From Candidatus Zhuqueibacterota bacterium (GTDB lineage Bacteria > BS750m-G25), in the NCBI GenBank assembly GCA_016783505.1, contig JADHWK010000001.1, positions 177,336-197,335 on the forward strand: a DNA stretch of 20,000 nt, given 5' to 3'. The position numbers and the translations under genes are program-made. Shown here one piece after another: positions 4,701 to 19,807 of this stretch. The notes below the pieces were generated by a model, which had not been told where the DNA came from, searched no databases, and was given only the letters and a program-made list of their open reading frames with translations. Within the stretch, counting starts at the first letter, position 1. The number at the start of each line of letters is the position of its first letter.

Positions 4701-6851
4701 GCTTCCATAGTTCTTCAAAATGATGTCCAGCTCCACCGTCTCGCCGGGGTTTATCTCCCCATCCCCGTTCCCCAGACTGGCCCCGGTAGAATCGTCGTCC
4801 ACCACCTGATCATAAAACCCCACAAAACCCGTATCCTGGAGAACTGGGATTTTGGCCTGATAGGGAAAATAGTTTTGTCGGCTAACCGTAAGTTCGAGGG
4901 TATCTTCTTCTGCTATGGCAAGGGGGAGGTGGGCATTTCCCTGGTCGTCCGTAATCCCTCGGCTGATGATCTCCTCCCCGGATACGACACAGACATAAGC
5001 CCCAGGAATGGGTCGGCCCTGATCGTCCAAGGCCAACACCGACAGGCTATTGCTGCCCAGGGAAATGAGTTGGGGGTGCCCTACCGCTAAAGATCGGGGT
5101 ACATCCGTCCACATCGAAAGCCCGGGATCACCCAGGAGGTTATACGTATAAAAGTAAAACTGAACAGCGGTACGATCGTTGCCGTAGATGTTATCGGGGA
5201 AATTCTGGTAGAGCCCCATCTTCCCCCGCAGGATAGCAGGACCCAGATGCTCGATTTTCTCTTGGAGAATGCCCTGAAAGATCTCCCCATCAAGGCAGTT
5301 ATTGAACCGGGTGCTGGTGTCATAATAGCTGGGGCCTATGCAGGCGATCCCCCCCCTGGGATTGGAGGCCGTTCCGGCTCGGAGGAAGGCCTCAGCCTGA
5401 CAGGGGTCATTCCAGCTGTTAAACTCCCCGGTAGCACAGACCATCCCCATGACCACGGGTAGTTTCCAGCCGTTGTTCAGATTTAAAATATAGGAGGAAG
5501 TATAACCGTCCCAATAAATCCAGCCCCGATAGTTTACAAAGGACACCCCACTGTTAATGGAATTGGTAACCTGGCTCGCCGGGATACTCCAACCGCTGTA
5601 AAAGACGGTATCCACCCAGCTGTACCCCCCATAAGTCAAGAACATCCGCTTTATGGCCTGTTTTGTAGTCTCACAGGAGATAGTGGTATGGGTGGCGGCG
5701 ATCATCAATGCCCGCTTGAACCAGGTGGTATCGGTCATAAAAGGATCACTTTCGTAGTCTACGATCTTGCTGACTATGGTATTCAATTGACTGATGCTGC
5801 GTATCGAGAGCCGACCCACGAACACCTCGGGGAAGAAGTCAGTCCCCTCCAGCAGGCTGTAAGTGAGGTTTGAGACATTCCAACTTCCCGTCCAGGCGGG
5901 GATAGAATAGCTCCCCGATTCATCCCCCACTAATACCACGTATTCCGGGGGGATCTCCCCGCTCTGATAGGCGTTTCGGATATAATTGCGGATATTGGAG
6001 GCGGAATAGCCAGTCTCCGAGAGCCTGGCCACCGCAGTAGGATAACCCTTCTTTCGCTTCCATTCCACCAAAGGCTGAAGGGACTGTTCCACCTGATTGG
6101 AATTGGGGATGATGAATAAATATCCCCCCCTCTGGTCGGCCTCCTCGGTCTGGAAAAGCTCAGCACCCAAGACGAAATTCCCCACCAATTCCCCGAAGCC
6201 CTCCGAGGGACGAACCCTCGGGTCTAATTTGGGATTCTCATCGGAATGACCGGTATAGCTAAGCCGGAAGGTAATCTGCGTGTAAAACCAGTTCTCCTCC
6301 CGACCCGGATTGACCCGTATGGGGTAGATGTGGACGGGGACCATCCGCAGATTTCGCATGATGACGGGTTTGCCCACCGATAGGGGTTTTTCAGGAAAGA
6401 AAGTGTCCCTGGTGTATAAATCATCATCCCAGTTGAAGGCCTGGGCCCCTTCCCTGGAATCGGACCCAAACCCCTGCCCCGGCAAGGCCAGCCCCGGGGG
6501 TAGCGGCACCGAATCCAATCCTACTATTTCCAGCTCAACCCCGGCCATCGGGGGAACGGCCACCCACTGGGTGAAGGCGGGCAGTTCCGGCTTTCCCCTT
6601 TCCCCCATTAGGCCAGCACCGGGTATACCAAAGGTCCTAAATATTTGTCCATTTTTTACCATTTCCCCCACCTCGACCCCGGGGAAGGTAATCCTGACCT
6701 CAGTTAAGGCGTCACTTGACTCAAGAACCACCACTGCCGGCTTTTCGGAAAAAGCCCGATCATGGCCAGGGATCCAGTCCGCCCTGGCCAGGATGGGTCC
6801 CTGGAAGCACAAACACAGAATAAGAAGCAAACCCAATCTTCCCAATTTCAT
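1725..6851 (-). CDS. Gingipain-like peptidase C25 family multidomain protein with T9SS C-terminal sorting domain (paralog A)
   Basis: Signal peptide; C25 propeptide (GKPELP, P.IMRNLR.VPV.IYP); C25 core (LVEWKRKKGY, PEYVVLVGD, PEVFVGRLS, FVNYRGW, MVCATGEF); two D/GNG..[N/D]PGET Ig-like modules; two GPD.YGY...FPFYG...NGWIS...FWDDL modules; choice-of-anchor-D-like Ig domain; C-terminal QNAPNPFNAST...KMVCLK. Confidence 0.88.
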   Translation of the reverse strand: MKLGRLGLLLILCLCFQGPILARADWIPGHDRAFSEKPAVVVLESSDALTEVRITFPGVEVGEMVKNGQIFRTFGIPGAGLMGERGKPELPAFTQWVAVPPMAGVELEIVGLDSVPLPPGLALPGQGFGSDSREGAQAFNWDDDLYTRDTFFPEKPLSVGKPVIMRNLRMVPVHIYPIRVNPGREENWFYTQITFRLSYTGHSDENPKLDPRVRPSEGFGELVGNFVLGAELFQTEEADQRGGYLFIIPNSNQVEQSLQPLVEWKRKKGYPTAVARLSETGYSASNIRNYIRNAYQSGEIPPEYVVLVGDESGSYSIPAWTGSWNVSNLTYSLLEGTDFFPEVFVGRLSIRSISQLNTIVSKIVDYESDPFMTDTTWFKRALMIAATHTTISCETTKQAIKRMFLTYGGYSWVDTVFYSGWSIPASQVTNSINSGVSFVNYRGWIYWDGYTSSYILNLNNGWKLPVVMGMVCATGEFNSWNDPCQAEAFLRAGTASNPRGGIACIGPSYYDTSTRFNNCLDGEIFQGILQEKIEHLGPAILRGKMGLYQNFPDNIYGNDRTAVQFYFYTYNLLGDPGLSMWTDVPRSLAVGHPQLISLGSNSLSVLALDDQGRPIPGAYVCVVSGEEIISRGITDDQGNAHLPLAIAEEDTLELTVSRQNYFPYQAKIPVLQDTGFVGFYDQVVDDDSTGASLGNGDGEINPGETVELDIILKNYGSGGEMGVWVVLSTPDHWVAMLDSVANYGDLDSGQVAAPGDSFVFRVNPECPDGTQLAFDLRIYNSSDQLWLSRLILGVKGPDLVTSGITILDGGNGLLDPGETAPIGINLSNNGGLEAQGVAGLLRSFSPGVIILDSVAFFGTIPIGGQGDNGSDSLILSADSTLFPGSRVDFELMLTITGGIQDTTRFTITVGVVHSFDPLGPDAYGYYAFDDTDMGYSQAPEYQWIEIDPDYGGPGTVLPLSDGGDQQDQSLVMNLPFTFSYYGRLYHWVTVCTNGWISMGATNLNNFRNWAIPSALGPAAMIAPFWDDLRLSSGGKVVFYYDSSFHRCLFEWSRVRTAGTNTQETFEVVLGDPAYYPTPSGDGPILFQYHTVSNVPGNYGDNDYATVGIESPDQDDGLEYTYFNHYPAPAAALAPGRAIRFTTDHGGEVEPPVMVVEPNSFSFTVPVGGVSSDLLTVSNPGGSTLLFTILISRGEERSTHLISQFPPTIWMEGESPPVKGAVGAHYPAVVLNSGGPDGYGYTWYDSHEPLGPPFRWADITGVGDEIVVLGDDSNLGPFPLGFDFPFYGESFSSFRVCCNGWISFTSTDTSFSNYPLPDPAQPENLLAIFWDDLSLEYGGQVFYYVTAESLVVSFIGVPGWGPRGGPYTFQAVLTWDGGIVYQYLDMGSERLDETTVGIQNGDGSIGLTVVHNAPYVEDSLAVGFYPPIRWLTVDPDGGMVMPDSIIGVSVQVDASDLVPGAYGANLLIQSNAPGEPIGVPVSLTVGNPEIVPDIFLSASEHDFGTVLVGGEAEWGLVVSNQGQADLVVDSLYVDQGPFSVALGQRGTPQTIAENISFTLNPGQSQLVLVSFQPVQAGDTTGSLIFISNDPEESPAIVSLSGTGTMVSLNPGQEPGVPTVFSLTQNAPNPFNASTLIRYGIPEESWVNVHIYNLLGQKVATLVACRQPAGFYHTQWQAEDYASGVYLCRITARKGGELVFTKTIKMVCLK

Positions 6852-6875: not shown

Positions 6876-9800
6876 TTATTTGATCAACAGCAACTTACGG
6901 TTCTGGGTGAAGTCCCTGGCTTTCATTCGACAAAAATATACCCCCGAAGGCCATACCGTCCCATCCCACCGCACCCGATAATATCCCGGGGCTTTATCCT
7001 TCTCTACTAAAACCGCTACCTCCTGCCCCAGGATATTATAAATCTTCAAAGAAACATGACTAGGAACGGGTATCTGGTATCTGATGACGGTCTCCGGATT
7101 AAAGGGATTGGGATAGTTTTGCCCCAGTGTAAAGACCTTCGGTAGGGCGTGACCGTCCCCCTCATCAACACCCACCGGGGTAATCGTCAGCCTCACCGGG
7201 ATCACCACCGTATCCCCCAGGGCGTTGTGGCTGATCCGGATCTGGGCACGATATTCCCCCACCCCCCAGTTCTCGGTGTCAAAATTTACCTGAATGGGAT
7301 GACTTTCCCCACCGGGCAGTATCCCATCCCTCGGGGAAACCGAAATCCAGTCCATGTGATAGCCGGCGTGATACCCCTCCACCCGATCCGATGAAGCCTG
7401 AATGATGACCACCATCACCCAGCGACTGTGAGCCCATTCATCCGTTATCTCCGCTCCCCCGGCATGCTCCCCACTGAACCCAGCCAGATGGGTCACCACC
7501 CGAATCTCGCCCGTAGAGGTATCCATCTTGCTGACCTGAAGCCCCGGGTCCCCCCCATCCTTGGAAAAAACATACAGGTTGAACCCCTCCTCATCCTCCG
7601 GCTGCCAGCCCAAACCATATATCCGCAGGTTACTGGGATATTGCCGCAATACCGTCCCTGAACGATCAATTACGTAGATGTCAGTGTTCACGCCGGAAAC
7701 CCAGAAATGATCCATCCCCGGATCGTAGGCGATGGCTCGGGCCGGATGGACGGGACTGGGGATCTCACCGATAAAATTCCCCAGGGTATCAAAAACCGTA
7801 AGGGTAGAACCAAAACTGCCATATAAATACTCCCCATCCCAGGCCAGGTCCCGGAAGCCCCAGCCAGCCGAACCCCCGGGCTGCTCAAAGAAATCCAGAT
7901 AATTCCCATCCAGGTCAAAAATATACACGTAGTTGGGTTGGGCCGAATTGTTGGCCCCGGACACGTAAAATTTTTTCCCGACAAAGGCGGCACCCAACAA
8001 CCTCCCATCCCCGGTGGGGGAACCCCCATCAAAAGAAAATTCCTGATCCCAAGGAATCCCTGCGGCACCCCCCGTATCGGGCTGAAAATGAACCCCCACC
8101 CGATACTCTAAAGGACCATTGCCTGGATTGCTCAAAGTAAAGGCCACTTCCTGACTCTGCCCCTGCGCCAACACCATGGTCAGTGAATCAGAATCCACCC
8201 ACACCTCAGGATGGGTTAAGGCAAAATCTAGGGCAGCGGTGTCGTCCACCGTAATCTCCACCCCCTGAATCAATGGATTATATCCCTCCAGGTGAGCCTC
8301 AAACTGATAATTTTTCACCAGGAGATCGGGGATAAAATAGAACCCGGATGAATCGGTAATCCCAAAATATACATCCCCCAGTGCCCGTACCCGGGCCCGG
8401 GGTAGGGGTTCCCCGGTTTCTAAATCGGTGACCCTTCCCCGCAAAGCCCCCCTTAAAAAGTTGATCTCGGTGGTGAATTTGATGGCCCTTCCCGCGATCA
8501 GGGGGGAGGCGGTCAGGGGCCTTACGTGAAAGTAGGAATACTCCAGCCCGTCTGCTTGGGAGGGGGATTCGATGCCCACAGTGGCATAGTCATTATCGGA
8601 GTATCGCCCTGGGACGTCGTTCACCGTCTCGTATTGGAACAGGATGTCCCCATCCCCCGACGGGGTGGGGTAGGAGACGGGATTATACAGAATGACCTCA
8701 AAGGTTTCCAAATCATTGCTGTATTCAGTCCGTACCCGGCTCCACTCCACCACAAACCAATTATTGACCGGGTCGTGGTAACAATAGACCCCGCCCCCAC
8801 CCAGTTCCAGATCATCCCAGAACGGGGCGATCATCCCGTCGGGCCCCGGGGCCCCGGGAATACCCCAGTTGCGGAAAAAGGGAATGGAACAGGAACCCAT
8901 GGCCAGCCACCCATTGGAGCAGATGGAGACCCGGGTATATCTATGGCCATAATATTGGAAGGGAAACGGGAGATCCACGATCTCTACATCGTCCTGCTCG
9001 TTCCCGTAATCACTGAGGGGGATTAAGCTCCCCACCCCACCATAATTGGGATCAATCTCGATCCATTGGTATTCAGGGGCCACCTCGTAATCGGAGTCGG
9101 TGTTGTCGAAGGCGTAATATCCGTATGAGTCCGGTCCCAGGGGATCCTGCTGGCCCACCGTCCCCACCTGGATGGAAAAGGAAACGGTATCTGAAAATCC
9201 CCCCTCCGCGGCCAAGGATATAAAGAGGGTAGTCTGATGTCCCCGAATGGTGAGGGCGTTGGCGGCCACCTGGAAATGGTCCTGGGTGTTGGTAGCTACC
9301 CCACCGGATGGAATAGCCCCGAAGACCCCGATGGGATCGGGGATGGTTACAAACGGGTCCTGGGAAAGAAGCCGGCCGGTCACGCTTGAAACCCCCACTG
9401 GTCCCTGATTGGCAACCGTCACCGTTAATTCAAGCACCTCGCCGGGGTCCAAGGTTCCCCCACCACCGATGAAGGTATGACCCCCCACCCTCAGTTCCGG
9501 GGCAAACACGGGGATCTCCAGGGCTGAAACCCAGGTACAATCTGCGTCATTGATAGTTAAATCAAAGGGAAGCTGGTATCCGTTGGGGCAGGAAGGGGAT
9601 ATGATAAAGTCAAAATCGTCAGCGCAGGCGGCGGAATCCCCCGGTCCCAGACCCCCATAGGTTTCCACCGTGTCAATCAGGGTTACCCAAGGGCTGGTAG
9701 TCCCCAGCACGGCCGAGACCTCCCCGGATGAGTCCTGAGCCCCGAAGTTTTTCAACCACACCACCAATTCAACCGTCTCCCCGGCCTGTAGGACCCCATC

Positions 9801-11855
9801 CCCGTTCCCCATACTCTCCCCCAGGGAATCATCGTCCACCGACTGGGCCCAGTAGCCCAGAAAGAGGTCACTGTCCACTACCATGGCTTGCCCTAAGTAA
9901 GGGATGAAGTTGTGCTTGGTCACCGTAACCCACAGTGTGCCCGCCGAGACCGGGTTGAAATTTAGTGCAAGTTGGCCATCCTGGGAAGTCAGCCCCCGGG
10001 CATAGATCCCATCTTCCTCCTTCATCAGGCAGATGTGGGCATCCTCTAAGGGTGCTCCCTGATCGGTCACCGTTAGTGTAAGGGTATTCGACCCCGCCGG
10101 TACTGCGGGTGGATGTGCCACCCCCAAGGGCTGGGGAATGTCCGTCCATACCTGAAGCCCCGGGTCCCCCATCAGGTTATTCCAGTATGAATAGTCAGTC
10201 ACTGCACCGGGATCGGTGGGGCAATTGAGGTACAGGGCTAGTTTACCCCTGAAAAGCGCCGCCCCAATGGCGTAAAGCTCCTCATCGAAAATCCCATAGT
10301 AGATACCCATATCAAGACAGTTGTTGAACCGGGTATGGGTGGAAAGGGTGGCAGAACCGATGCAGGCCACCGCCCCCTTGGGGGTATAGGGGGAGCCCAC
10401 CCGGACAAAATATTCCGACTGATCAGCCCCAGAACCGACGAAATCCCCCGTTCCGCAGGTGATAATCGTAACCACGGGCAGCATGAATCCATTGGTCAGC
10501 ATTGCGATGTCATCGTTGCCAAATCCTTCCATCCCCAGCCAACCCCGATAATTGAAGAACCCCACCCCGTTATTGATGGCATTGCGAATAAAATCGGGGA
10601 CCGACCCCCCCATCGTGTACCACAGGGTATCCACCCTGGAGTAGCCGTGGGTCAGCATCCGCTGTTTAACATAACGTTTGGTATGGATGGTGGAGGTACC
10701 CGAGTGCGAGGAACCAGCCACCAGCACCGCCCGTTTGTACCACCCAGTCTGACCCATGTAGGGAGTTTTTTCGTAATATAGAATTTTGTTAACAATGGTG
10801 AGCAGTTCACCCAAGGAATTGACTGACAGCCGACCCACGAAGGCATCGGCCAGGATATCCCCGCCCTCGAGCTGGACGTAGGGGTGGTCGCTGGTGGAAT
10901 TGGCGGCGGGCACCGAATAGCTCCCCACCTGGGAGCTAGAAGCATCCCCCACCAGCACAATAAATTCAGGGGGGGACTCCCAGCTATCATAGGCCTGTTG
11001 AATGAAACTCTTGATAATATAATAACTGGTGCCGAAGGGAAACCTCTCAACGACCACCGAATGACCCTTCTTCCGTTTCCAATCCACCAAGGGCTGGATG
11101 GCATTCAAAAGATCAGGCTGATCAGGACAGATGAAAAGATAGCTTCCCTTCTCCGTTTCCTCATCAACCGCTGATGGTTCATAATTAAGAACGACATTCC
11201 GGTATAGCTTGGCAAAAGATTCAGAATACCTAGGCCGAACTCTTTCCTTCTCGTTAACGGTGCTGGTTCCAGAAAATTCCAGTTCCACCCGCAGGGTATG
11301 GTTGAACCGGATCTCCCCCGTAGAGGGGTTCACCTGGAACGGGTAGAAGGTGAGGGGAACCACCCTTAAGTCCCTGAGGATGGCCGGATCCCCCATCCTG
11401 ACGGTCTCCGAAGGATAAAAGGCGTCTTCAGAATAGTTGATGATGAGGGGATCGCCCTCCTTAAAATCGGGGGATTGGGCCGGGAAGATGCGAAAGCCCC
11501 TTTCTACGGTGTGATGGACAACCACATTTTTAATGCGCACCCCAGCCCTCGGGGGGATGGCGATCAGCCGTGTCACCACCGGCAGCTCGGGCTTTCCCAC
11601 CTCTATCAGGGACCCTTCCCGCCCCAGTTCAAGCACGGTAAAATCCTCACCATCCACCCTGAAGGATTCAACCCCAACCCCCGGGATCTGGGCCTCCACC
11701 ACCAATCCCGTTTCATCGGATGAAACCACCCGGGCCACCGGCTCGGTTCCACCGACGTTTGCGGGCAGGGAAAGCCATTCAGCCCGAACAGAAATCGAAG
11801 CCCATAAAATAACAAAACTGATGAGAAAAAAAGTTCGAGAAATCCTCCTCACCAT
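6876..11855 (-). CDS. Gingipain-like peptidase C25 family multidomain protein with T9SS C-terminal sorting domain (paralog B)
   Basis: Same N-terminal layout as paralog A (LVDWKRKKGH, PEFIVLVGD, FVGRLS, FFNYRGW, ITCGTGDF), then a carboxypeptidase-regulatory-like domain (GALRGRVTDLETGEPLPRARV), a propeller-like segment (RDLAWDGEYLY, RAIAYDP..DHFWVS) and QNYPNPFNPET...KLLLIK. Start placed at ATG 11855 (MVRRISR, purine-rich SD, normal signal peptide); track start is 11885. Confidence 0.88.
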   Translation of the reverse strand: MVRRISRTFFLISFVILWASISVRAEWLSLPANVGGTEPVARVVSSDETGLVVEAQIPGVGVESFRVDGEDFTVLELGREGSLIEVGKPELPVVTRLIAIPPRAGVRIKNVVVHHTVERGFRIFPAQSPDFKEGDPLIINYSEDAFYPSETVRMGDPAILRDLRVVPLTFYPFQVNPSTGEIRFNHTLRVELEFSGTSTVNEKERVRPRYSESFAKLYRNVVLNYEPSAVDEETEKGSYLFICPDQPDLLNAIQPLVDWKRKKGHSVVVERFPFGTSYYIIKSFIQQAYDSWESPPEFIVLVGDASSSQVGSYSVPAANSTSDHPYVQLEGGDILADAFVGRLSVNSLGELLTIVNKILYYEKTPYMGQTGWYKRAVLVAGSSHSGTSTIHTKRYVKQRMLTHGYSRVDTLWYTMGGSVPDFIRNAINNGVGFFNYRGWLGMEGFGNDDIAMLTNGFMLPVVTIITCGTGDFVGSGADQSEYFVRVGSPYTPKGAVACIGSATLSTHTRFNNCLDMGIYYGIFDEELYAIGAALFRGKLALYLNCPTDPGAVTDYSYWNNLMGDPGLQVWTDIPQPLGVAHPPAVPAGSNTLTLTVTDQGAPLEDAHICLMKEEDGIYARGLTSQDGQLALNFNPVSAGTLWVTVTKHNFIPYLGQAMVVDSDLFLGYWAQSVDDDSLGESMGNGDGVLQAGETVELVVWLKNFGAQDSSGEVSAVLGTTSPWVTLIDTVETYGGLGPGDSAACADDFDFIISPSCPNGYQLPFDLTINDADCTWVSALEIPVFAPELRVGGHTFIGGGGTLDPGEVLELTVTVANQGPVGVSSVTGRLLSQDPFVTIPDPIGVFGAIPSGGVATNTQDHFQVAANALTIRGHQTTLFISLAAEGGFSDTVSFSIQVGTVGQQDPLGPDSYGYYAFDNTDSDYEVAPEYQWIEIDPNYGGVGSLIPLSDYGNEQDDVEIVDLPFPFQYYGHRYTRVSICSNGWLAMGSCSIPFFRNWGIPGAPGPDGMIAPFWDDLELGGGGVYCYHDPVNNWFVVEWSRVRTEYSNDLETFEVILYNPVSYPTPSGDGDILFQYETVNDVPGRYSDNDYATVGIESPSQADGLEYSYFHVRPLTASPLIAGRAIKFTTEINFLRGALRGRVTDLETGEPLPRARVRALGDVYFGITDSSGFYFIPDLLVKNYQFEAHLEGYNPLIQGVEITVDDTAALDFALTHPEVWVDSDSLTMVLAQGQSQEVAFTLSNPGNGPLEYRVGVHFQPDTGGAAGIPWDQEFSFDGGSPTGDGRLLGAAFVGKKFYVSGANNSAQPNYVYIFDLDGNYLDFFEQPGGSAGWGFRDLAWDGEYLYGSFGSTLTVFDTLGNFIGEIPSPVHPARAIAYDPGMDHFWVSGVNTDIYVIDRSGTVLRQYPSNLRIYGLGWQPEDEEGFNLYVFSKDGGDPGLQVSKMDTSTGEIRVVTHLAGFSGEHAGGAEITDEWAHSRWVMVVIIQASSDRVEGYHAGYHMDWISVSPRDGILPGGESHPIQVNFDTENWGVGEYRAQIRISHNALGDTVVIPVRLTITPVGVDEGDGHALPKVFTLGQNYPNPFNPETVIRYQIPVPSHVSLKIYNILGQEVAVLVEKDKAPGYYRVRWDGTVWPSGVYFCRMKARDFTQNRKLLLIK

Positions 11856-11868
11856 TCCTCTTCCTTTC

Positions 11869-12891
11869 TCAGTTATCCCATGCAATAATCAACAACCCCT
11901 GATCCCGGTCGGCCAGGTAGATATATTCTTCGTCAACAAAAACATCGTTGGCGTATGGGGTATTCAAAAAACCTACAAGGATAGGATTTCTAGGATCCAA
12001 AATATCACAAACCTTCATCCCCCCCCGACGACAGGCTAAAAAGGCTTTCTTATCTTTAACTACAATTCGATCCGCATAAAAATTATACTCGTTGGTATCG
12101 TAACCCCCCACTAAGACCAGTGAATCAAGGTTAGAAATATCAACTACCTGAAGCCCTGCCCGACCGCAGGCAATAAAAGCAAAGGTGGAATCCACCCACA
12201 CATCCCGAGCTGACCCAGGCGTATCTACGGAACTTAAAAGCACGGGGGAATCTATATCCGACTCATCAATGACCGCTAAACCGTTTTGTTCCATTGCTAC
12301 ATAAGCATAGGGGAACTTTACGAAAAAACCCCGGGTATTCCAATCTAATCGTATAAAATTTCCTTTTATCTGCCACCAGTTAAGAACCCCAAATTGTTCA
12401 TAATAGGCGAACCAATGTATCCCAAAACCATCGGATAAATCAGAGGCCGCCACTACAACCGTATCCATCTTCTCCTCAACAATCTTAATATCTTCTATAT
12501 CCCGATCATAAGCATTGCCAACAGAATAGATGGAATCCAAATAGCTATAAAATTGTGCCTGGTTTTCAGTTACCACTATGAGGGTTTGGTTCAAGTGAGA
12601 GCCAGTTATTCCACTAACATCAGAGGTGTCAATAGTAAAAAAGGACGTGTCAAGGGTGGGATGGTATGGATTAGAAACGTTAAAAATTTCCACCCCCCCT
12701 TGATCCTCAGCCACAAAGATTGTATCCCCCAACACGACTAATTCTTGAGCATACCCACGTGTCATGGTTTCACTAATTACATTAAGTACAATTTCTGCAG
12801 AATCGGTGGGGGATCTACGCTTCCCACAACTATGCAGACCTAAGGTTAATATAATAAAAAATATTGACAAAAAGTGTGATTTTTTTAACAT
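11869..12891 (-). CDS. LVIVD-repeat beta-propeller lipoprotein
   Basis: Lipobox-like LGLHSC after a basic/hydrophobic N-terminus; repeats GGVEIFNVSNP, GLAVIDESD, GLQVVDISN, GMKVCDILDP, GLLII, each preceded by a YAYVA/FAFIA/YIYLA-type strand. Confidence 0.85.
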   Translation of the reverse strand: MLKKSHFLSIFFIILTLGLHSCGKRRSPTDSAEIVLNVISETMTRGYAQELVVLGDTIFVAEDQGGVEIFNVSNPYHPTLDTSFFTIDTSDVSGITGSHLNQTLIVVTENQAQFYSYLDSIYSVGNAYDRDIEDIKIVEEKMDTVVVAASDLSDGFGIHWFAYYEQFGVLNWWQIKGNFIRLDWNTRGFFVKFPYAYVAMEQNGLAVIDESDIDSPVLLSSVDTPGSARDVWVDSTFAFIACGRAGLQVVDISNLDSLVLVGGYDTNEYNFYADRIVVKDKKAFLACRRGGMKVCDILDPRNPILVGFLNTPYANDVFVDEEYIYLADRDQGLLIIAWDN

Positions 12892-12956
12892 TACATCATA
12901 AATCTAAATACTGTAAATAATTATGCATAAATAGATTGAATTACAAATCGAGGAGG

Positions 12957-12993
12957 GTCATTCTGAATCCGGCAACCGCCGGATGAAGAATCT
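12957..12993. repeat. REP-like hairpin
   Basis: GTCATTCTGAATCCGGCAACCGCCGGATGAAGAATCT: inner stem ATCCGGC/GCCGGAT and outer ATTCT/AGAAT. Intergenic, just after the barrel stop. Confidence 0.65.
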
Positions 12994-13036
12994 CTCTTTC
13001 ACGATAAATCGGGATCAGAGTAACCTAAAAGGGCTA

Positions 13037-14128
13037 TCATAGTGAGTAACTAAATTCCAACGAATAGCGATGGTTGGAGAACTCTTTTAAGTCCACCACC
13101 CAGGGGTAATCGGAAATCACCTCCCGACATTCGAAAAAGTATTCCAACCGCCCCTTCAGCCTGGGAAAGGGACGGGTTTCCAGTCCCAGCACGATCCGAC
13201 CCCTCCGGTTATGGCGACCCGCATGCAGAGAGTCTTCGAAGGGGTGGGCTTCAGAGGAATAATACCGCAACCTGAGACGATAGGCAGCATCCCCGTAAAA
13301 TTTATACGTCAAAATCCTAAAATAAGGGGGACGAATAGAGGCTTTAAACGTATCCTGAACAAAAGAAAGATCCGCCGACCCCGAGGGCGGGGACGGATCA
13401 CGGCCGATGTTATCGGCCTCCTGATAACAATAATCCAATCCAACCCTGAGGCCCTTTAGCAACCACATGGTAAATTTACATCCAAAGATCTGAGAGATAG
13501 TATCATATTCGGTAAAATCCGAATTGTAATAAAGCTCTTCTCGCCGGAGGTAAGCCCCCACCTCCAGCCTTTTCCTGAATCGCCAGTACAGCCCCCCAGT
13601 GTATTGGTTTTCGGTAAAATCACAGGCTCGATAAACCCTGGGATCACCAGAAAATAATGCCACTCGGTCGATATCCTGGTAATGCCTTAAATAGAAGGAG
13701 GGGATATAGAAATATTGAACCTTAAGGGAAAACCCGGCCCCCAAATCCTGTTTTGCCCAAAAAGTATAAGTCTGATAATCCTTGATGGAGTTGATAAGGT
13801 AAGATTTGTGTTTGGCCCAAAATTGCACCTGTGTTCTTCCCGGCAGCCCCAGAGACCATTCCCACCTGAGCCGCAATCGAACGGTGGTAGCCAGATCATC
13901 ATAAGTCTCAATTACCGAAGCATACCTCCTGGTGTTGTTAACGAAGTGATCGCGGTCGGCATCAGAATAGCGGAGAATATTGTCGTCGTAACCGATTCCT
14001 ACTCCCATCTGGATTCGGGGAATCAGGGGGTTAGTCCCGGCAAAAATGGATACAGCAGGGAACAAAATAGCGAAAGCTACAATCCATTTTCTTTGCACTA
14101 CAATCGTTTTAGAGTGAATTTTTCGCAT
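13037..14128 (-). CDS. Predicted outer-membrane beta-barrel protein, Arg-rich
   Basis: Signal peptide ending ...AVSIFA; first strand GVGIGYDDNI; many alternating amphipathic strands (RLRLRWEW, FSLKVQYFY, LRVGLDYCY, LKGRLEYFF); C-terminal beta-signal-like YSLEFSYSL. Confidence 0.75.
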   Translation of the reverse strand: MRKIHSKTIVVQRKWIVAFAILFPAVSIFAGTNPLIPRIQMGVGIGYDDNILRYSDADRDHFVNNTRRYASVIETYDDLATTVRLRLRWEWSLGLPGRTQVQFWAKHKSYLINSIKDYQTYTFWAKQDLGAGFSLKVQYFYIPSFYLRHYQDIDRVALFSGDPRVYRACDFTENQYTGGLYWRFRKRLEVGAYLRREELYYNSDFTEYDTISQIFGCKFTMWLLKGLRVGLDYCYQEADNIGRDPSPPSGSADLSFVQDTFKASIRPPYFRILTYKFYGDAAYRLRLRYYSSEAHPFEDSLHAGRHNRRGRIVLGLETRPFPRLKGRLEYFFECREVISDYPWVVDLKEFSNHRYSLEFSYSL

Positions 14129-15032
14129 CTTCTTCTGGAATCATAACCCTGACCAGAACGCTCCTATCCGGGTCCAACAGCTTAATCTGGTAGGAGTGCT
14201 TCCTCTTGGGAACGTTGACCAAAAAGAACCTTCCTTTCCCGGGAATCTTATCCTTTTCTGTAAGATATTCCGTTACCTTGGATCGAATCGTGCGTAATGG
14301 ATAGGTGGCAATGACCTTCCCATTCTCCGACAATTGAATCCGATATTTCTTCTCTCCTCTCATCCGGTAGTCAAACTCCAACCGGGTCATCACCTTAAGG
14401 ACGGTGGGACCGATGACTCCTACCCGAAAGGGGTCCTCCGGGGTCAGCCGATAATAGATGAGTTCCTCCTCCCGATAGCTCAAGGATATCGGGTCCCCAT
14501 GCTCGGCGGGTGTGAAGGCTATAAACTTAGCCCCTTTCCGCTCCAATTTTTCCCAGAACCGTAGCAGAACTGGAATACCCTGAAGCTCCTCAAGATAAAA
14601 AGCGTAGGTATGCACCCCACTGGGAACCCGAATCTCAGTATCAGTAGCCCTGCCGATGGGTATCTTCTTTCCTAAGGATTTGACCTTATTAGTCTTTCGG
14701 GAAACGGTCTCTATCTTATATTTCTTCCGGCCATCGTCCTTTCGATAAAAATAGGAATTTTTCACCTTTCCCCCCACTCCCCTGTACAGCATGGGTCGGG
14801 AGCGGATTTTAAGCCGCGCCGGGCCCATCAACTCCACCACTACTGGCTTACTGACCTGAAGGGGGTAATAAGTGCGTTTCTTCCCTTGAATGATGAGGGT
14901 CTCTTTCTTTGTCCATTCCCGGGGCCTCACCAACTTCCATTTTGACTTTGCCAGCGGAGCTCCAGGGGTCATCAGACCGGCCCACATGAGAAGAAATATC
15001 CCGACAAACAAGCTCTTTTCTATCCTTCCCAT
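14109..15032 (-). CDS. Exported, strongly basic hypothetical protein with two tandem homologous domains
   Basis: Start ATG 15032 has an AGAGGA SD and a signal peptide (track start 15092 also possible). Internal repeat YYPL..GPARLKIRSR..VPSGVHTY..VLLR vs YYRL..GPTVLKVMTR..VPKRKHSY..VLVR. Overlaps the barrel gene by 20 nt. Confidence 0.8.
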   Translation of the reverse strand: MGRIEKSLFVGIFLLMWAGLMTPGAPLAKSKWKLVRPREWTKKETLIIQGKKRTYYPLQVSKPVVVELMGPARLKIRSRPMLYRGVGGKVKNSYFYRKDDGRKKYKIETVSRKTNKVKSLGKKIPIGRATDTEIRVPSGVHTYAFYLEELQGIPVLLRFWEKLERKGAKFIAFTPAEHGDPISLSYREEELIYYRLTPEDPFRVGVIGPTVLKVMTRLEFDYRMRGEKKYRIQLSENGKVIATYPLRTIRSKVTEYLTEKDKIPGKGRFFLVNVPKRKHSYQIKLLDPDRSVLVRVMIPEEDAKNSL

Positions 15033-15118
15033 AATTCTATTCCTCTGTATTTTAACGTCTTCGGAATTTCTAATTGAGAATATTTTTAGCATTATTTAAA
15101 CATAATTCCAATTGTCCC

Positions 15119-15400
15119 TTAACCTCGAATTGGCGTCAACTTAACGAGTGAAGTCAAATAATTCCCTCTTTTTTAAAGGGGGATTACCACGTAAGTGCAG
15201 CGATAGCCGCCCTTAATGGGGTTGGCTTACGCCAAGGGGGATATTAAAATTTCTCATTCTTTCAATGCAAAATATACCAACATCAATTAGAAATCCCCAC
15301 TCACCCCCCTTTAGTAAAGGGGGGGAATAACTAACTTACCCTCAGGCTGCCGCGCATGCGTAACTTCGGTGTGATCCTAAAAGTCAGGATTTAACCTCGA
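15119..15400. mobile_element. Composite REP/MITE-like intergenic insertion bounded by a 10-bp direct repeat
   Basis: TTAACCTCGA at 15119-15128 and 15391-15400. Inside are two oppositely oriented CCC(C/T)CTTT-n-AAAGGGGG hairpins (~15161-15185 and ~15291-15328). Confidence 0.5.
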
Positions 15401-16537
15401 TCACAGCAGGCTATCCGGCTCCACCCCTTCCCTTTGCAACCGATGAACCCGATGGCCCGAATAAACCACGCCACCCAGGGCCGAAAGCAGTATCAACAAC
15501 GCCGCCCAGGTGACCCTGGGATCATATTTCTCGTCCGCAAAAATCTTCCCTTCCCCCACTTCGGGGAGGGGAACCGGGGCGATCGGTAGGCCATATTCAG
15601 AAACAATTCGGTTGATGTTCAGGATGTGAATAAGGGGAATCCCCTGTTCAGCCAGGCGGATCATGGCGCCCTTGAGCGGATAGTTCTTCATCTCTAAGTT
15701 CTTAGTCACCCCCGACCGGATCAACCGTCCGTTGATGGAATGTCCCAGGCTGCCCGCCCCGCCCCCCACGTTGATGTAGACTTTAATTCCCCTTTTCCCC
15801 GCCAGTTTACGGTAAATACGCAATCTCTCTTCAATGTTCTCCTCGAGGCTCTTGTTGTGGATCAGCGGCAATTCATTCCTCTCCACCGCCTGTCGGAGCA
15901 ACACCCTCCCCTGGACGGTCAACCGTCTCCCCATATCCTGCCCTCCCCCTAAGGAAGCAGCCGCCGAACGGATCGAAAAAATCCCCTTTTCTACCAACAA
16001 ATGCTCCATATCCAGCCAAGTGAAATGGGGATCGTTGGCCCCCCACTGAGAAGCCCCCACCGATGTGATAATAATGGGCACGATGTCCAACACCTCGCTG
16101 GCGGCCAGCACGGCGAGGTTAGCCCCCGGCATGGAACCGGTTAAGGCAACTGCAATTTGATCCCCCGGCCCCAGACCCACCTCCTTCATCATCTGCACCA
16201 CCACGGCGGCAAAGTTTGGGTTGAGCACGGTCAGTTTGGCGTCCAGCAATCCCCGATCGGTGGTGATGGGGGTGTACTGCTCCCCGATTAGAGCGGTCTG
16301 ATTGGGATCGTTTACCTGATCAATGAAAACCCCCTTTTCCAACCGCACTTGACGGATGAGGTCTCCGGCCCTCTTCATCAATTCAGCAGCCGTCAGTTTT
16401 TCTTCGAAGTAGGACCTCCTCACCATAACCGGGGAGTTCAAAGCCCATAACAACAGAAGGACAGCCAGCACCGCCAGGCCGATCAGCGTCCACACCGACT
16501 GAATGGTGGGTCTATACATTGATCTAATCTTTGGCAA
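15401..16537 (-). CDS. pgsW: Poly-gamma-glutamate system protein (PgsW, TIGR04332-like)
   Basis: Motifs LIGEQYTPITTDRG.LDAK.T..NPNFAA, TGSMPGANLA, SVGASQWGAND and YINVGG; N- and C-terminal hydrophobic helices; follows pgsB-pgsC. Start may be ATG 16519. Confidence 0.85.
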   Translation of the reverse strand: MPKIRSMYRPTIQSVWTLIGLAVLAVLLLLWALNSPVMVRRSYFEEKLTAAELMKRAGDLIRQVRLEKGVFIDQVNDPNQTALIGEQYTPITTDRGLLDAKLTVLNPNFAAVVVQMMKEVGLGPGDQIAVALTGSMPGANLAVLAASEVLDIVPIIITSVGASQWGANDPHFTWLDMEHLLVEKGIFSIRSAAASLGGGQDMGRRLTVQGRVLLRQAVERNELPLIHNKSLEENIEERLRIYRKLAGKRGIKVYINVGGGAGSLGHSINGRLIRSGVTKNLEMKNYPLKGAMIRLAEQGIPLIHILNINRIVSEYGLPIAPVPLPEVGEGKIFADEKYDPRVTWAALLILLSALGGVVYSGHRVHRLQREGVEPDSLL

Positions 16538-16544
16538 ATTTAAA

Positions 16545-16611
16545 ATCCTGAAGGTTTGGGACTAATCCCGAATATTCGGGATAGGATTTGTTTGTCCCGA
16601 ACCTTCGGGAT
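16545..16611. repeat. Cluster of three 18-bp palindromic REP-like units
   Basis: ATCCTGAAGGTTTGGGAC (16545-16562), perfect palindrome ATCCCGAATATTCGGGAT (16565-16582), GTCCCGAACCTTCGGGAT (16594-16611). Units 1 and 3 are inverted copies with 2 mismatches. Confidence 0.75.
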
Positions 16612-16671
16612 GGGATTTGGAGCTTGTGATTTATAGATTTTGATTATTTTGTGAAATTTAAGCATGTATTT

Positions 16672-17112
16672 CTACCCCCCTCCGAAGATGAGCATGAGTA
16701 GAAGTTTCACCAGAACTGCGGTCACTGTGACCACCGATAAGGTTCGCACCACCCCCTGTTGTTCCATCCACGAGGCGATCAGTCCCGGTATGATAAATCC
16801 CACCGCCTGCATTCGGATATCGAGGTCGAAGAAGGCGTAGAACCTGAGCTGCCGGCTTAGGTAGCCGTAGAGAAACCCCAGCAGGATGGCCATCACCAGC
16901 CGCCGCTTGCCGTAGATAAAGATAAATTTGGACAGCAGCTTGATGGTTAAAAAGGCCAGATAGGCCACGGCGAAGGTGCCCGCTACCCGCAGGGGTTCTT
17001 CTAAATGAAGGGCAATATATCCGGGGACTACTATCCCCCCGGCGGTGACCCCTAATACCTCGCCCAGAATAAGGCTGAAGAAGACCCCAAGACCGATGGC
17101 CACCTCGATCAT
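16672..17112 (-). CDS. pgsC: Poly-gamma-glutamate synthase membrane subunit PgsC/CapC
   Basis: Hydrophobic ~146 aa with G.TAGGIVVPGYIAL, IYGKRR and GFIIPGLIA.W..QG signatures. ATG 17112 overlaps the pgsB stop (ATGA). Confidence 0.93.
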   Translation of the reverse strand: MIEVAIGLGVFFSLILGEVLGVTAGGIVVPGYIALHLEEPLRVAGTFAVAYLAFLTIKLLSKFIFIYGKRRLVMAILLGFLYGYLSRQLRFYAFFDLDIRMQAVGFIIPGLIASWMEQQGVVRTLSVVTVTAVLVKLLLMLIFGGG

Positions 17113-18281
17113 GCCTGCTGCCCCCCATGTTCCTTGAAACAAGCGGCCAGTTGACGACCCCCGGCCCCCATATTGCCGATAGCTAGCACGACTACCTTGG
17201 GACCGCTGAGGGCCTTTACTTTACGGTAAACCTCCCCCGCCAAAGCCCCACCCAGGTTGACCATCCGGTCAGGCGAAAATCCCTGACGAAGGGCCCTTCT
17301 CCAGATGGCACGGGTCCTCTCACCAGTTAACACCAGCCAATCAGGCCGAATCCTCTCCCAAACCAGGCTTAAAAGCTGAAGTGATCTTCCAAACCGGTCG
17401 CTGCGTGAGTTAAGGATCACGATCAGGTTTTCAATGGGAGATAGCAAATCCCGGGCTTTTCCCCAAACCACCCAGGTAGAGTCGGGGTCGTTTGCAGCCA
17501 GGGCGTTGACGAAATAAAGGTCCCTATTGTCTTCTAGGATATGGAATATCTGCAGTGCCCCTGGGTCGGGGTAGGCCTTGACCATTCCCCCCAGCGCTGT
17601 CTGCCTCTCTACGCCGCAGGCCTGACAGATTGCCAGGGCCAAGGCCACGTTGTCCTGATGCTCTGGATAGCGGAATCGGGCTATCTCCTCTGGGGAAACA
17701 GAATCCTCCTTGACCGCCTTAAGATCAGTTTTCATCCGCCGGGCTGTCTTCTCCATCAAGGGAAACCATACCCTTTCGGTGGTAAAGGCCTTCCGGCCCT
17801 GGGGGAGGGTATTACAAAGGGATAGGGCCACATCCGTCAGGGTGGGTCCCATCTCATCCAGATGGTCGGGCCTGACATTGGTGAAGACCCCCAGCGTAGA
17901 CCGGATCATCCGCTGCTCACTGATCCATTGAAACTGCGGTTTGACCGCCATACATTCCACCACTAATGCCTGGGGATGCCCTCGGGCGGCAAACCGCAGG
18001 GCCCTAATCTGCTCCCCGATGGAGGGCGACCGCAGCCGATGGATAGGAATTTCCAGCCCATGTTCGTCAATAATCCGGGGAAGGGTACCTGTGGTTTTGG
18101 CGATCGTTCGTATGCCCCCAGCCCGCAGACCAGCGGCTATCAGCCGGGTCACGCTTGATTTTCCCCGGGATCCATTGACGTGAATCCGTGTGGGAATAGC
18201 GGCTAAGGCGCGACCGTGCACCCGATATTCCCACCAACCAAGAAGTATTAAAAAAATGGTGATGAATAGTATAATAATCAT
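17109..18281 (-). CDS. pgsB: Poly-gamma-glutamate synthase PgsB/CapB (Mur-ligase-like ATP-dependent amide ligase)
   Basis: N-terminal TM; RIHVNGSRGKSSVTRLIAAGL, AKTTGT, LVVECMAV, TNVRPDHLDEMG, FVNALAANDPDST, N.RSDR..RS. Confidence 0.95.
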   Translation of the reverse strand: MIIILFITIFLILLGWWEYRVHGRALAAIPTRIHVNGSRGKSSVTRLIAAGLRAGGIRTIAKTTGTLPRIIDEHGLEIPIHRLRSPSIGEQIRALRFAARGHPQALVVECMAVKPQFQWISEQRMIRSTLGVFTNVRPDHLDEMGPTLTDVALSLCNTLPQGRKAFTTERVWFPLMEKTARRMKTDLKAVKEDSVSPEEIARFRYPEHQDNVALALAICQACGVERQTALGGMVKAYPDPGALQIFHILEDNRDLYFVNALAANDPDSTWVVWGKARDLLSPIENLIVILNSRSDRFGRSLQLLSLVWERIRPDWLVLTGERTRAIWRRALRQGFSPDRMVNLGGALAGEVYRKVKALSGPKVVVLAIGNMGAGGRQLAACFKEHGGQQA

Positions 18282-18451: not shown

Positions 18452-19807
18452 TTACTCCACATCTACATCAACGGGGCGATCAAAGCCGGTCAAGGAGCCA
18501 ATCTCCCGCCCGTTTCCATCAAATCGAATGACCCTTCCCCAGTAAGCATCGGCCAATAAAATCCCCTGATGGAACACGCTGGGGTTAACGGCAAGGCTAG
18601 CCGACCAATAGGGATAGTCGAGTACTTTGATGGAATCCTCCCCGGCGGGGTACACCTGCCACACCCCATATGGGTCACTTCCAGGCTGATACCGGATTGC
18701 CCAGCAGTCCCCGGTGCTGTCATTCACGGCAACATCCATAATCAATCCGCTGAGTATGGGTCCTTCCACACCACCGTTGATCCGAAAAAGACCAGTGCGG
18801 GTCCCCACCCAACAGATCCCATCATCACTATACACTGCAATTGAAATAGGACTATCCACTGAGATAGTATCCGGATCGGTGGACGGGGAAGGACTGATCC
18901 GAATCACCCGACCCTCACCCTCATCAGCCAGCCAGGCCCATCCCGACTGGGAGTCCACAGTTATGGTAAGGTAATCTGAACAGGGTAGTCCAGAGAGGGG
19001 ATATTTCGTCAAGCCCCCATCCCGATCCAGACGGACAACGGGCGTCCCCCCTCCCTTCAAGGCCACCCAGCAGTCTTCGCTGGACTGGTCTACGGATAAG
19101 TCCAATGGCCATCCTGTCAATTCCACACTAATCATCTCTTTTCCATTCTTGTCAATCTTGATCACCTGCTGGGCAAAGTAATCTGCAACCCACAAGGTGG
19201 TATCCCGACGATATGCGGCGATTGCCACCGGGTAGCTGAACCTTATAGATAGGGGAAAAAGGTGACTCCCATCGTAGGTAATCTTGGTAATCCAACCCCA
19301 GGAATCGGCCACCCAGTAGTTGAAGGGACCGGGGCGGATGGAATCGAAGGGCGAGGGTGGACTTTCGTAACCTTCGGTGAGAGCCGTTATCCAATAGGTA
19401 TATATTGTATCATAGAACACCGTGGAATCGGCATATTGAGAGATTTTTCCAACCACTGAGAATGTATCAAATTCCGTTTGTCCTGAACATTTACGGAAAA
19501 TCCGGTATCCCAACATTCCTTCAACGGAAATGTCATCCCACTCAACGGTCACCTTCCGTTTGTCCGAGACCAGCCGCAGGCCGGTGGGCTTGCCATCCGT
19601 CTCCGGATTCAAGGGATCCAACGGGTTAGTCCGCTCCCTCTCGGAACATCCCCAGAAGACCAGCAGGGCCAGGATCAACCAGCTTAACCGCTTAGCGATC
19701 CATAGAGAACCACTACTTTTGAAAAAGCAGAGGGGCAAGGGCGCAGAGCAGACAAGGTGAAGTTCAGGATTTAGTCCATTATGTCTATTAATTGCGTTAG
19801 CCATCAA
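18452..19807 (-). CDS. Lipoprotein with fibronectin type III-like domain and NHL/YWTD-like beta-propeller; true start uncertain
   Basis: Lipobox LVFWGC then RERTNPLDP; FN3-like (PTGL...VTVEWD...GYRIFR...YTYWITA...ES.PS); repeated blades P.AIAA...LWVAD, PLDLSVD...CWVA, PVDVDVE. The first 23 codons of the track ORF may be IS sequence; an in-frame TTG is at 19738. Confidence 0.75.
   Translation of the reverse strand: MMANAINRHNGLNPELHLVCSAPLPLCFFKSSGSLWIAKRLSWLILALLVFWGCSERERTNPLDPLNPETDGKPTGLRLVSDKRKVTVEWDDISVEGMLGYRIFRKCSGQTEFDTFSVVGKISQYADSTVFYDTIYTYWITALTEGYESPPSPFDSIRPGPFNYWVADSWGWITKITYDGSHLFPLSIRFSYPVAIAAYRRDTTLWVADYFAQQVIKIDKNGKEMISVELTGWPLDLSVDQSSEDCWVALKGGGTPVVRLDRDGGLTKYPLSGLPCSDYLTITVDSQSGWAWLADEGEGRVIRISPSPSTDPDTISVDSPISIAVYSDDGICWVGTRTGLFRINGGVEGPILSGLIMDVAVNDSTGDCWAIRYQPGSDPYGVWQVYPAGEDSIKVLDYPYWSASLAVNPSVFHQGILLADAYWGRVIRFDGNGREIGSLTGFDRPVDVDVE

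Follow-up and report, generated by a model that had tools for sequence, protein, structure and literature searches.

Poly-gamma-glutamate synthase genes linked to a basic jelly-roll protein and a predicted 14-stranded outer-membrane barrel: a candidate export route in diderm bacteria

How might poly-gamma-glutamate (PGA), a polymer made at the inner membrane, leave a cell that has an outer membrane (OM) as well? PgsB and PgsC are established as the families that polymerise glutamate at the inner membrane, and the familiar PGA systems, PgsBCA(E) and CapBCADE of Bacillus, belong to monoderms. The question is raised by five genes in a 20-kb stretch of DNA from a Candidatus Zhuqueibacterota bacterium, where pgsB, pgsC and pgsW are followed by a gene for a basic exported protein and a gene for a predicted OM β-barrel; the full 20-kb stretch is called the window here, and its long open reading frames (ORFs) all lie on the minus strand. 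An earlier note on this DNA suggested that PgsW, the basic protein and the barrel form a trans-envelope conduit, and this idea has gained support from gene linkage, from the fold of the barrel and from gene fusions, while the passage of the polymer is a step that we infer. It is fairly probable that the cluster is a pgs system with two dedicated envelope proteins that carry PGA across the OM; in such a system, the basic protein would bind the chain and dock on the barrel, through which the polymer would pass. A literature search revealed no paper on the OM export of PGA or on PgsW, and in the excerpted sections of a 2026 review of bacterial surfaces, PGA capsules are mentioned in monoderms only (PMC13721041). 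Other reviews appear to count Fusobacterium nucleatum among Gram-negative producers.

The five genes are co-oriented on the minus strand, as the earlier note had described (coordinates in Table 1), and pgsB and pgsC are indeed coupled by an ATGA shared by the pgsB stop and the pgsC start (17112-17109). PgsB, PgsC and PgsW all score above the curated NCBIfam cut-offs, by which their identities are assigned. PgsB also matches Mur_ligase_M in Pfam (E 4e-7) and would be a Mur-ligase-type amide ligase. PgsC matches Caps_synth_CapC (PF14102, E 8e-31), carries three hydrophobic 19-mers and is assigned on these grounds as the membrane subunit of PGA synthase. The pgsW gene lies directly downstream of pgsC, with an alternative ATG start at 16519; the gene name occurs in a RefSeq annotation, that of a Cetobacterium somerae locus considered below. 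Hydrophobic 19-mers at residues 10-28 and 340-358 of PgsW enclose about 310 residues, in agreement with the earlier picture of two transmembrane segments around a domain, and a weaker one is found at residues 138-156. PgsW has no Pfam family, and a profile search of PDB sequences did not lead to any relative whose structure has been solved. No match to PgsA/CapA (the PGA_cap family) turned up when 11 window proteins were scanned with Pfam and NCBIfam.

Are the two envelope genes tied to the pgs genes beyond this genome? A word-indexed protein search gave 15 relatives of the barrel (14 of them non-self) and two of the basic protein. A genome scan was made with the motif YDDN[VIL][LM][RK][FY]S, taken from barrel alignment A1, in one genome per species (185,579 species), so that barrel homologues were collected by the motif alone, with genomic context ignored. 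It gave 106 matched stretches, 92 of which encode barrel relatives, and the best 80 were taken together with flanks of up to 10 kb; genes were called as the longest ORFs of at least 60 amino acids (aa) and identified by phmmer with the window proteins (E up to 1e-3). In these best 80 of the 92 loci, the barrel was matched in 80, the basic protein in 77, PgsW in 76, PgsB in 70 and PgsC in 69, together with two frequent neighbours, a C25-like protein (59/80) and an LVIVD-repeat protein (58/80). The missing pgs and basic genes all coincide with contig ends: the barrel sits on the first bases of the contig in loci L056 and L075, and the contig begins within pgsW in L018, L031, L036, L066, L071, L074 and L076. 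A check for barrel homologues unlinked to pgs found none, as the barrel stands beside unrelated genes in place of pgs in 0/80 loci.

The usual gene order is C25-like, pgsB, pgsC, pgsW, basic, barrel, LVIVD, with the barrel and LVIVD genes shifted upstream of pgsB in three loci (L022, L039 and L047). The genes are closely packed: the median gap is 33 nucleotides (nt) between pgsW and the basic gene (within 150 nt in 73/75), 26 nt between the basic and barrel genes (71/77) and 36 nt between the barrel and LVIVD genes (58/58), these lengths being approximate since the starts are those of the longest ORFs. According to record titles, 56 of the 80 loci come from Bacteroidota, and the other labels are LCP-89, Calditrichota, Zixibacteria, Marinimicrobia, Ignavibacteria, Chlorobiota, Fibrobacteres, Acidobacteriota and one 'Clostridia'-labelled bin; all 80 are metagenome-assembled genomes. 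The recurrence of the five-gene arrangement across 80 species-level genomes is far beyond chance. In lineages such as LCP-89, Calditrichota, Zixibacteria and Acidobacteriota, the five-gene core is kept without the C25-like and LVIVD genes, and therefore the basic/barrel pair is not there to serve those two proteins.

The 363-aa protein was suspected of being a barrel, and the AlphaFold2 model bears this out: a signal-peptide helix is followed by 14 β-strands (mean pLDDT 91.1, pTM 0.85), and the best structural matches are OM channels. In a Foldseek comparison with the PDB, CymA comes first (4v3h_B, E 8e-10, TM-score 0.53/0.61), followed by general porins and OmpG (2iwv_A, 0.52/0.66), and the secretin PgaA for poly-N-acetylglucosamine (PNAG) is found at rank 16 (4y25). 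The modelled protein thus shares the 14-stranded fold of CymA and OmpG at TM-scores of 0.53-0.66, but differs from them in sequence (10-13% identity, no Pfam membership), and CymA and OmpG are uptake channels of sugar operons.

At the sequence level, the family was examined in alignment A2, whose 86 sequences comprise the window protein, 73 of the 80 locus ORFs (those passing a 330-430 aa filter) and 12 of the 14 non-self database matches, with P0008 and P0010 omitted as near-duplicates of P0007 and P0009. Weak Pfam matches to OM-barrel families are scattered among these relatives: OMP_b-brl in 8/86, Porin_4 in 7/86, Omp85 in 4/86, and MtrB_PioB, Wzi (E 0.0018), Porin_OmpG (E 0.006) and Alginate_exp (PF13372, E 0.02) in 1/86 each; the window barrel itself has no Alginate_exp match. 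A profile of the family found no match among PDB sequences at E up to 1. ESM Atlas matches are confined to 'hypothetical protein' clusters from phyla of the Fibrobacteres-Chlorobi-Bacteroidetes (FCB) type. The family BBP2_2 (PF10082), carried by 46% of the members of the rank-12 ESM Atlas cluster, was considered and dropped, being absent from the Pfam matches of the 86 relatives.

The residues Y47, D48, N50, S55, H302 and R305 are invariant in A2, and R148, R288, R335 and K348 are among the near-invariant ones. The most conserved part of the protein is the motif YDDNxLRYS with the helix that follows (residues 47-63); it covers the final part of strand 1 and extends into the long segment behind it. 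Prediction of a complex between barrel residues 31-363 and basic-protein residues 29-307, each with its own alignment, scored 0.01 against a mark of 0.32 and is evidence neither way.

The basic partner agrees with its earlier description as a Lys/Arg-rich exported protein: its 307 residues include 64 K+R versus 32 D+E, the isoelectric point (pI) is 10.16, and the N-terminus bears a signal-like segment. The basic character is a property of the family, since the pI exceeds 9 in 77/78 members (median 9.76), and 18 columns are at least 80% K/R/H (R79, R158, R195, R217, R231 and R295 included) versus four that are at least 80% D/E. The family alignment A3 contains 75 sequences, namely the window protein, 73 of the 77 locus ORFs (250-360 aa) and P0017. 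In the AlphaFold2 model (pLDDT 89.5, pTM 0.58), the signal helix precedes two all-β domains, at residues 33-163 and 170-299, both jelly-rolls (β-sandwiches) and homologous to each other (hhalign 99.8%, E 1e-29). Foldseek relates the modelled protein to tandem CBM51, tandem CBM22, C1q-like and malectin-like jelly-rolls (E 3e-6 to 1e-4), with the BcsB-BcsC cellulose complex 9b8i at rank 8 (TM-score 0.21, identity 8%). The family profile, when compared with PDB sequences, gave two chance-level matches only and no sequence relation to BcsB. There is no Poly_export/SLBB domain, the mark of OPX proteins, which take part in the export of polysaccharides at the outer membrane: the basic protein has no Pfam or NCBIfam family at all, and its fold is jelly-roll instead. 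Likewise, a tetratricopeptide-repeat (TPR) family was matched in Pfam scans neither by the basic protein nor by the barrel nor by their fused forms. A lipobox-like motif is present in only 3/78 basic proteins, as compared with 46/59 LVIVD proteins, and therefore the basic protein, once exported, is most likely soluble. When 1.84 billion representatives (a 50% identity library) were searched exhaustively with a profile, 1005 relatives appeared at E up to 1e-3, of which 550 reached 1e-10 and 273 reached 1e-30; this is a large family without a database name.

Where in the envelope would such a protein act? Gene fusions point to the periplasm. In four of the 80 loci (L070, L073, L074 and L077, the first two and the last labelled Acidobacteriota), the barrel ORF is lengthened to 630-840 residues by a second module copy that is fused to its N-terminal end, and the separate basic gene is retained as well. 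Pfam has no family for the N-terminal extension of these acidobacterial barrels, and it was recognised as a further basic module by profile comparison: in the L070 protein (P0018), residues 29-275 align with basic family A3 (hhalign 99.2%, E 1e-19) and residues 299-633 with barrel family A2 (E 7e-49). Fusions of this type have a single N-terminal signal segment and none between module and barrel. The termini of an even-stranded OM barrel are periplasmic, and therefore a module placed N-terminal to the barrel behind one signal peptide should be periplasmic too.

Fusions were further surveyed among 149 of the 150 best representatives, the window's own protein being omitted. Two of these proteins, P0131 (693 aa) and P0141 (683 aa), combine PgsW (TIGR04332, 297 and 317 bits) with the basic module, two hydrophobic segments lying in between; the module comes after the third PgsW membrane pass and hence would be periplasmic here also. 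Taken together, the two kinds of fusion suggest that the basic module resides in the periplasm, joined to the OM partner in one case and to the inner-membrane partner in the other. The survey also shows the jelly-roll domain to be a modular unit, present in two-, three- and four-domain forms, free or barrel-fused: three jelly-rolls are found in 9/149 representatives, P0060 among them, and P0067 (977 aa) has four, followed by a barrel.

Since the fusions join the module to the barrel and PgsW to the module, the inner membrane, the periplasm and the OM would be connected in one chain, and a pathway can be proposed. Glutamate would be polymerised by PgsB and PgsC at the inner membrane. PgsW, anchored by a helix at each end, would display its domain of about 310 residues to the periplasm. 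The basic protein would be exported by its signal peptide and would bind the polyanionic chain in the periplasm through the many conserved Arg, Lys and His residues of its jelly-rolls, then dock on the barrel from the periplasmic side; the 14-stranded barrel would serve as the channel that takes the linear polymer through the OM. The LVIVD lipoprotein and the C25-like protein, which would be delivered by the type IX secretion system (T9SS), probably work on the polymer once it is at the surface of the cell. More ambitiously, this could be a new trans-envelope machine for a polypeptide exopolymer in the FCB group and some Acidobacteriota, with the path PgsBC, PgsW, polycationic jelly-roll protein, 14-stranded barrel of a new family (the last two docked on each other and in some lineages covalently fused), in which the chain of Bacteroidota would be handled at the surface by the LVIVD lipoprotein and a C25-like T9SS protein lacking the catalytic His; this joint proposal is tentative and somewhat less than evenly probable.

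The proposal has clear precedents among systems for other polymers. Synthase-dependent export is known for alginate (AlgK/AlgE), PNAG (PgaA) and cellulose (BcsC), the TPR part being fused N-terminally to the barrel in PgaA and BcsC, and the lumen of AlgE is electropositive, for a polyanion. Like these systems, the cluster considered here couples inner-membrane polymer synthesis with a periplasmic module and an OM barrel encoded beside the synthase, and, as in PgaA and BcsC, the periplasmic module is sometimes an N-terminal fusion to the barrel. Unlike them, it has a tandem jelly-roll instead of TPR as the periplasmic module and shows no significant sequence relation to AlgE, PgaA or BcsC beyond the single weak Alginate_exp match; in addition, a cationic lumen as in AlgE is not clearly conserved, and what is exported would be a polyamide instead of a polysaccharide. 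BcsB of cellulose synthase is an inner-membrane-anchored protein, not basic by design, with periplasmic carbohydrate-binding jelly-roll domains. The adaptor candidate would resemble it in placing jelly-roll domains on the periplasmic path of the polymer, but it is basic, most likely soluble and has no detected sequence relation to BcsB. With Bacillus PgsBCA, the cluster shares orthologous PgsB and PgsC (NCBIfam equivalogs), whereas PgsW stands in place of PgsA/CapA, there is an outer membrane to cross, and two extra envelope genes are present; a gamma-glutamyltransferase, found in the Bacillus systems, is absent here, and the C25-like protein is the conserved neighbour instead.

A composite translocon from a different pathway provides another parallel. 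In the excerpt of PMC9601211 that deals with them, EpsY and EpsX of Myxococcus xanthus are described as a D1D2-OPX/β-barrel translocon of a Wzx/Wzy-dependent pathway. The basic/barrel pair is similar to that system, as the excerpt presents it, in that a soluble protein of the periplasm and an OM barrel are encoded by two separate genes, whose coupling across many genomes revealed the module, and differs in having 14 strands, as opposed to the 18 of the AlgE-like EpsX, and a jelly-roll adaptor without a Pfam family in place of the OPX protein EpsY (PMC9601211).

Several observations weigh against export by these two proteins. The same excerpt gives 16-18 strands for known synthase-dependent exopolymer translocons such as AlgE, PgaA and BcsC (PMC9601211), as compared with 14 in the AlphaFold2 model of the barrel. 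The charge of the barrel is not a family trait: the earlier note called it Arg-rich, which is right for the window protein (36 Arg, pI 9.29) and does not extend to the family, where whole-protein pI ranges from 4.9 to 11.3, exceeds 9 in only 35/81 and is below 7 in 24/81, so that the AlgE-like cationic barrel of that note cannot be maintained family-wide. Pointing the other way, a crude estimate of lumen charge, in which strand residues were assigned to lipid or lumen by hydrophobicity parity without coordinates, gives 27 K+R versus 13 D+E (net +14) for the window barrel and a median of net +4 for the family, positive in 70/86; the conserved columns assigned to the lumen in this way include basic K136, R148, R288 and R335 and acidic D48 and D78. 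In the model, the YDDNxLRYS-helix segment could line the channel or, less favourably for transport, plug it. The structural likeness of the basic protein is limited to Foldseek TM-scores of only 0.2-0.3 over the two-domain model, low values of the kind that an uncertain orientation of the two domains would give. As for the PgsW::basic fusions, they are rare (2/149), P0131 is a singleton on one contig where a stop codon may have been lost, and a search with P0131 as a query gave nine matches, all of which are unfused PgsW besides P0131 itself; these fusions are weak evidence. Finally, the spacer between pgsW and the basic gene, on which the earlier note was silent, is 368 nt long in the window, as against the median of 33 nt elsewhere.

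The most direct counterexample comes from a cultured diderm. Among 72,556 plasmids, the sole relative of PgsW is located on a 664-kb replicon of Cetobacterium somerae (Fusobacteriota), plasmid p1 (NZ_CP143320.1, locus L081, 395196-413837), where the gene order is ggt, DUF6305, TRAP permease, a hypothetical gene, succinylglutamate desuccinylase, pgsB, pgsC, pgsW and a cold-shock protein. In a profile search of the six frames of these 18.6 kb, PgsW was recovered at E 6e-61, and no relative of the barrel or the adaptor appeared at E up to 10; a homologue of neither gene thus lies within 9 kb on each side of pgsBCW. A tblastn search of the 72,556 plasmids with the barrel and the basic protein likewise gave no match. 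The barrel/adaptor module is therefore lineage-specific and does not accompany pgsBCW in all diderms, a view based on this single locus, and C. somerae, judging by its gene content, must handle the polymer in another way.

How do other explanations compare? Linkage and fusions show a common function, not a direction, and the barrel and the basic protein might serve to retain a PGA capsule on the surface while the polymer leaves by another route. Wzi, the OM barrel lectin for the K30 capsule, is a model for such a role; Wzi is one of the weak Pfam matches (in a single relative), the cluster also encodes a surface-directed LVIVD lipoprotein and a T9SS cargo protein, and a basic, lectin-like jelly-roll could bind PGA equally well outside the cell. 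Yet the module that is fused to the barrel lies on its periplasmic side by the topology argued above, the PgsW::basic fusions place it there likewise, and the clusters hold no second candidate OM channel that is conserved. Anchoring of the capsule is hence unlikely as the function of the pair.

Another possibility, also quite unlikely, is that the pair forms no conduit at all and takes part in chain-length control, envelope shielding or the assembly of the LVIVD and C25-like proteins, or that the product is something other than free PGA, for instance a gamma-glutamylated envelope molecule; this product variant falls under the same estimate. Both product and transport are indeed inferred, the charge of the barrel is not conserved, its first long loop has a conserved motif that could act as a plug, and a C25-like partner without its catalytic His indicates that the cluster holds non-canonical parts. 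Against this stand the persistence of the five-gene core where the C25-like and LVIVD genes are absent, and the score of PgsB as a PGA synthase equivalog. The weakest explanation, uptake or recycling through a CymA-like import channel with the basic protein as a periplasmic binder of PGA fragments or glutamate, draws on the 14-stranded uptake channels CymA and OmpG as best structural matches and on the uptake and degradation genes of the Cetobacterium cluster (ggt, TRAP permease, a succinylglutamate-desuccinylase-like gene), but is very improbable: an inner-membrane importer is conserved in none of the 80 loci, where the conserved neighbours besides pgsBCW are only the C25-like, LVIVD, HGSNAT-like (42 loci) and unknown 297-aa (37 loci) proteins, the fusion of the module to PgsW, a protein of the synthase system, fits export better, and likeness in OM-barrel fold says little about the direction of transport.

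Export by the jelly-roll protein and the barrel thus stays the preferred reading, and the pair, whose members each belong to a new protein family, probably constitutes an exopolymer translocon of the adaptor-plus-barrel kind that serves a polyamide. Two unnamed protein families that are tied to pgsBCW wherever they have been seen make the crossing of the OM by PGA experimentally approachable. If the reading is true, the principle of adaptor and barrel extends from polysaccharides to a polyamide; if the more ambitious proposal holds, they add another class to the OM translocons of exopolymers, the first whose polymer is not a carbohydrate, and type IX secretion becomes linked to a polyglutamate coat. 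The distribution of the loci points to polyglutamate coats as a common feature of uncultured Bacteroidales and related phyla, and the finding may help the production of secreted PGA in Gram-negative hosts.

In most lineages, the conserved cluster exceeds the five genes of the earlier note by the LVIVD lipoprotein and the C25-like T9SS cargo. The LVIVD gene follows the barrel gene in all 58 loci where it was matched, and the window protein has the N-terminal sequence ...LGLHSC; this lipoprotein may be a further OM or surface part of the system. The C25-like gene is usually located immediately upstream of pgsB. Its catalytic residues were compared in 48 proteins (the C25-like ORFs of 46 loci and both window copies), with gingipain R numbering counted from the alignment with 1cvr_A; His211 and Cys244 of gingipain R form the catalytic dyad of peptidase family C25. 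The Cys aligned with Cys244 is kept in 47/48, whereas the column of the catalytic His contains Glu in 41/48, Trp in 4/48 (both window copies included) and His in 1/48, and the window protein at 6876-11885 has a 5-residue gap opposite His211-Thr215 of 1cvr_A. The C25-like neighbours may therefore be non-canonical enzymes or binding proteins delivered by the T9SS. The idea that they are counterparts of CapD or gamma-glutamyltransferase is weakened, as the canonical catalytic His is missing.

Clustering of all ORFs from the loci added an HGSNAT_cat-like polytopic membrane protein and the unknown protein of about 297 aa. In Bacteroidales-type loci, both genes come after the LVIVD gene (e.g., L071:4111-5223 and L054:13506-14399), and neither is present at the corresponding position of the window. 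The remaining features of the window are collected in Table 1; the 451-aa β-propeller-like protein upstream of pgsB has no relative among the 80 loci.

Table 1. Genes and one intergenic spacer of the 20-kb window
Feature	Position	Strand	Matches and remarks
451-aa β-propeller-like protein	18452-19807	minus	weak Vgb_lyase match; upstream of pgsB
pgsB	17109-18281	minus	TIGR04012 equivalog, 397.2 bits (cut-off 222.7)
pgsC	16672-17112	minus	TIGR04011, 108.2 bits (cut-off 96.45)
pgsW	15401-16537	minus	TIGR04332, 313.3 bits (cut-off 100)
Spacer between pgsW and the basic gene, 368 nt	15033-15400		two palindromes
Basic secreted protein, adaptor candidate, 307 aa	14109-15032	minus	no Pfam or NCBIfam family
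Predicted 14-stranded OM β-barrel, candidate translocon, 363 aa	13037-14128	minus	no Pfam or NCBIfam family
LVIVD-repeat β-propeller lipoprotein	11869-12891	minus	LVIVD, E 2e-36
C25-like giant protein	6876-11885	minus	Peptidase_C25, E 2e-49; Propeptide_C25; Por_Secre_tail (T9SS C-terminal sorting domain)
Second C25-like T9SS cargo protein, tandem paralogue	1725-6851	minus	Peptidase_C25, E 4e-54; Propeptide_C25; Por_Secre_tail; choice-of-anchor D
Type IV pilin-like gene	1058-1504	minus	Pfam/NCBIfam scans
PilT ATPase, truncated by the window end	3-1040	minus	Pfam/NCBIfam scans

The junction between the basic and barrel genes depends on the start that is chosen. The earlier note had the stop of the basic gene overlap the start of the barrel gene, and this holds for the 363-aa ORF that opens at ATG 14128, since the TAA of the basic gene (14111-14109) lies 20 nt inside it, while the in-frame GTG at 14098 would abolish the overlap. 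A TTG at 14065 is a further alternative start, and the public protein set lists the barrel in a 342-aa form.

The long spacer between pgsW and the basic gene (15033-15400) contains two related palindromes, CCCTCTTTTTTAAAGGGGG at 15164-15182 and CCCCCTTTAGTAAAGGGGG at 15305-15323, and a 15-nt inverted repeat (15063-15077/15283-15297). On its minus strand, a weak terminator-like match (15180-15164) and weak promoter-like matches (15139-15111 and 15118-15091) are found; no Rfam family was detected in the whole window, this spacer included. With such hairpins in a 368-nt spacer, the basic and barrel genes of the window may form a separate transcript, and the spacer may thus mark the boundary of a transcript or serve in regulation. 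The spacer between pgsC and pgsW (16538-16671, about 135 nt) has two small palindromes of the form CCCGAA..TTCGGG, one of which scored as terminator-like on the plus strand (16565-16582). The G+C content dips to 0.41 at 12001-13000, as compared with 0.48-0.59 in the rest of the window, and this low-G+C stretch takes in the LVIVD gene together with the spacer that follows the barrel gene.

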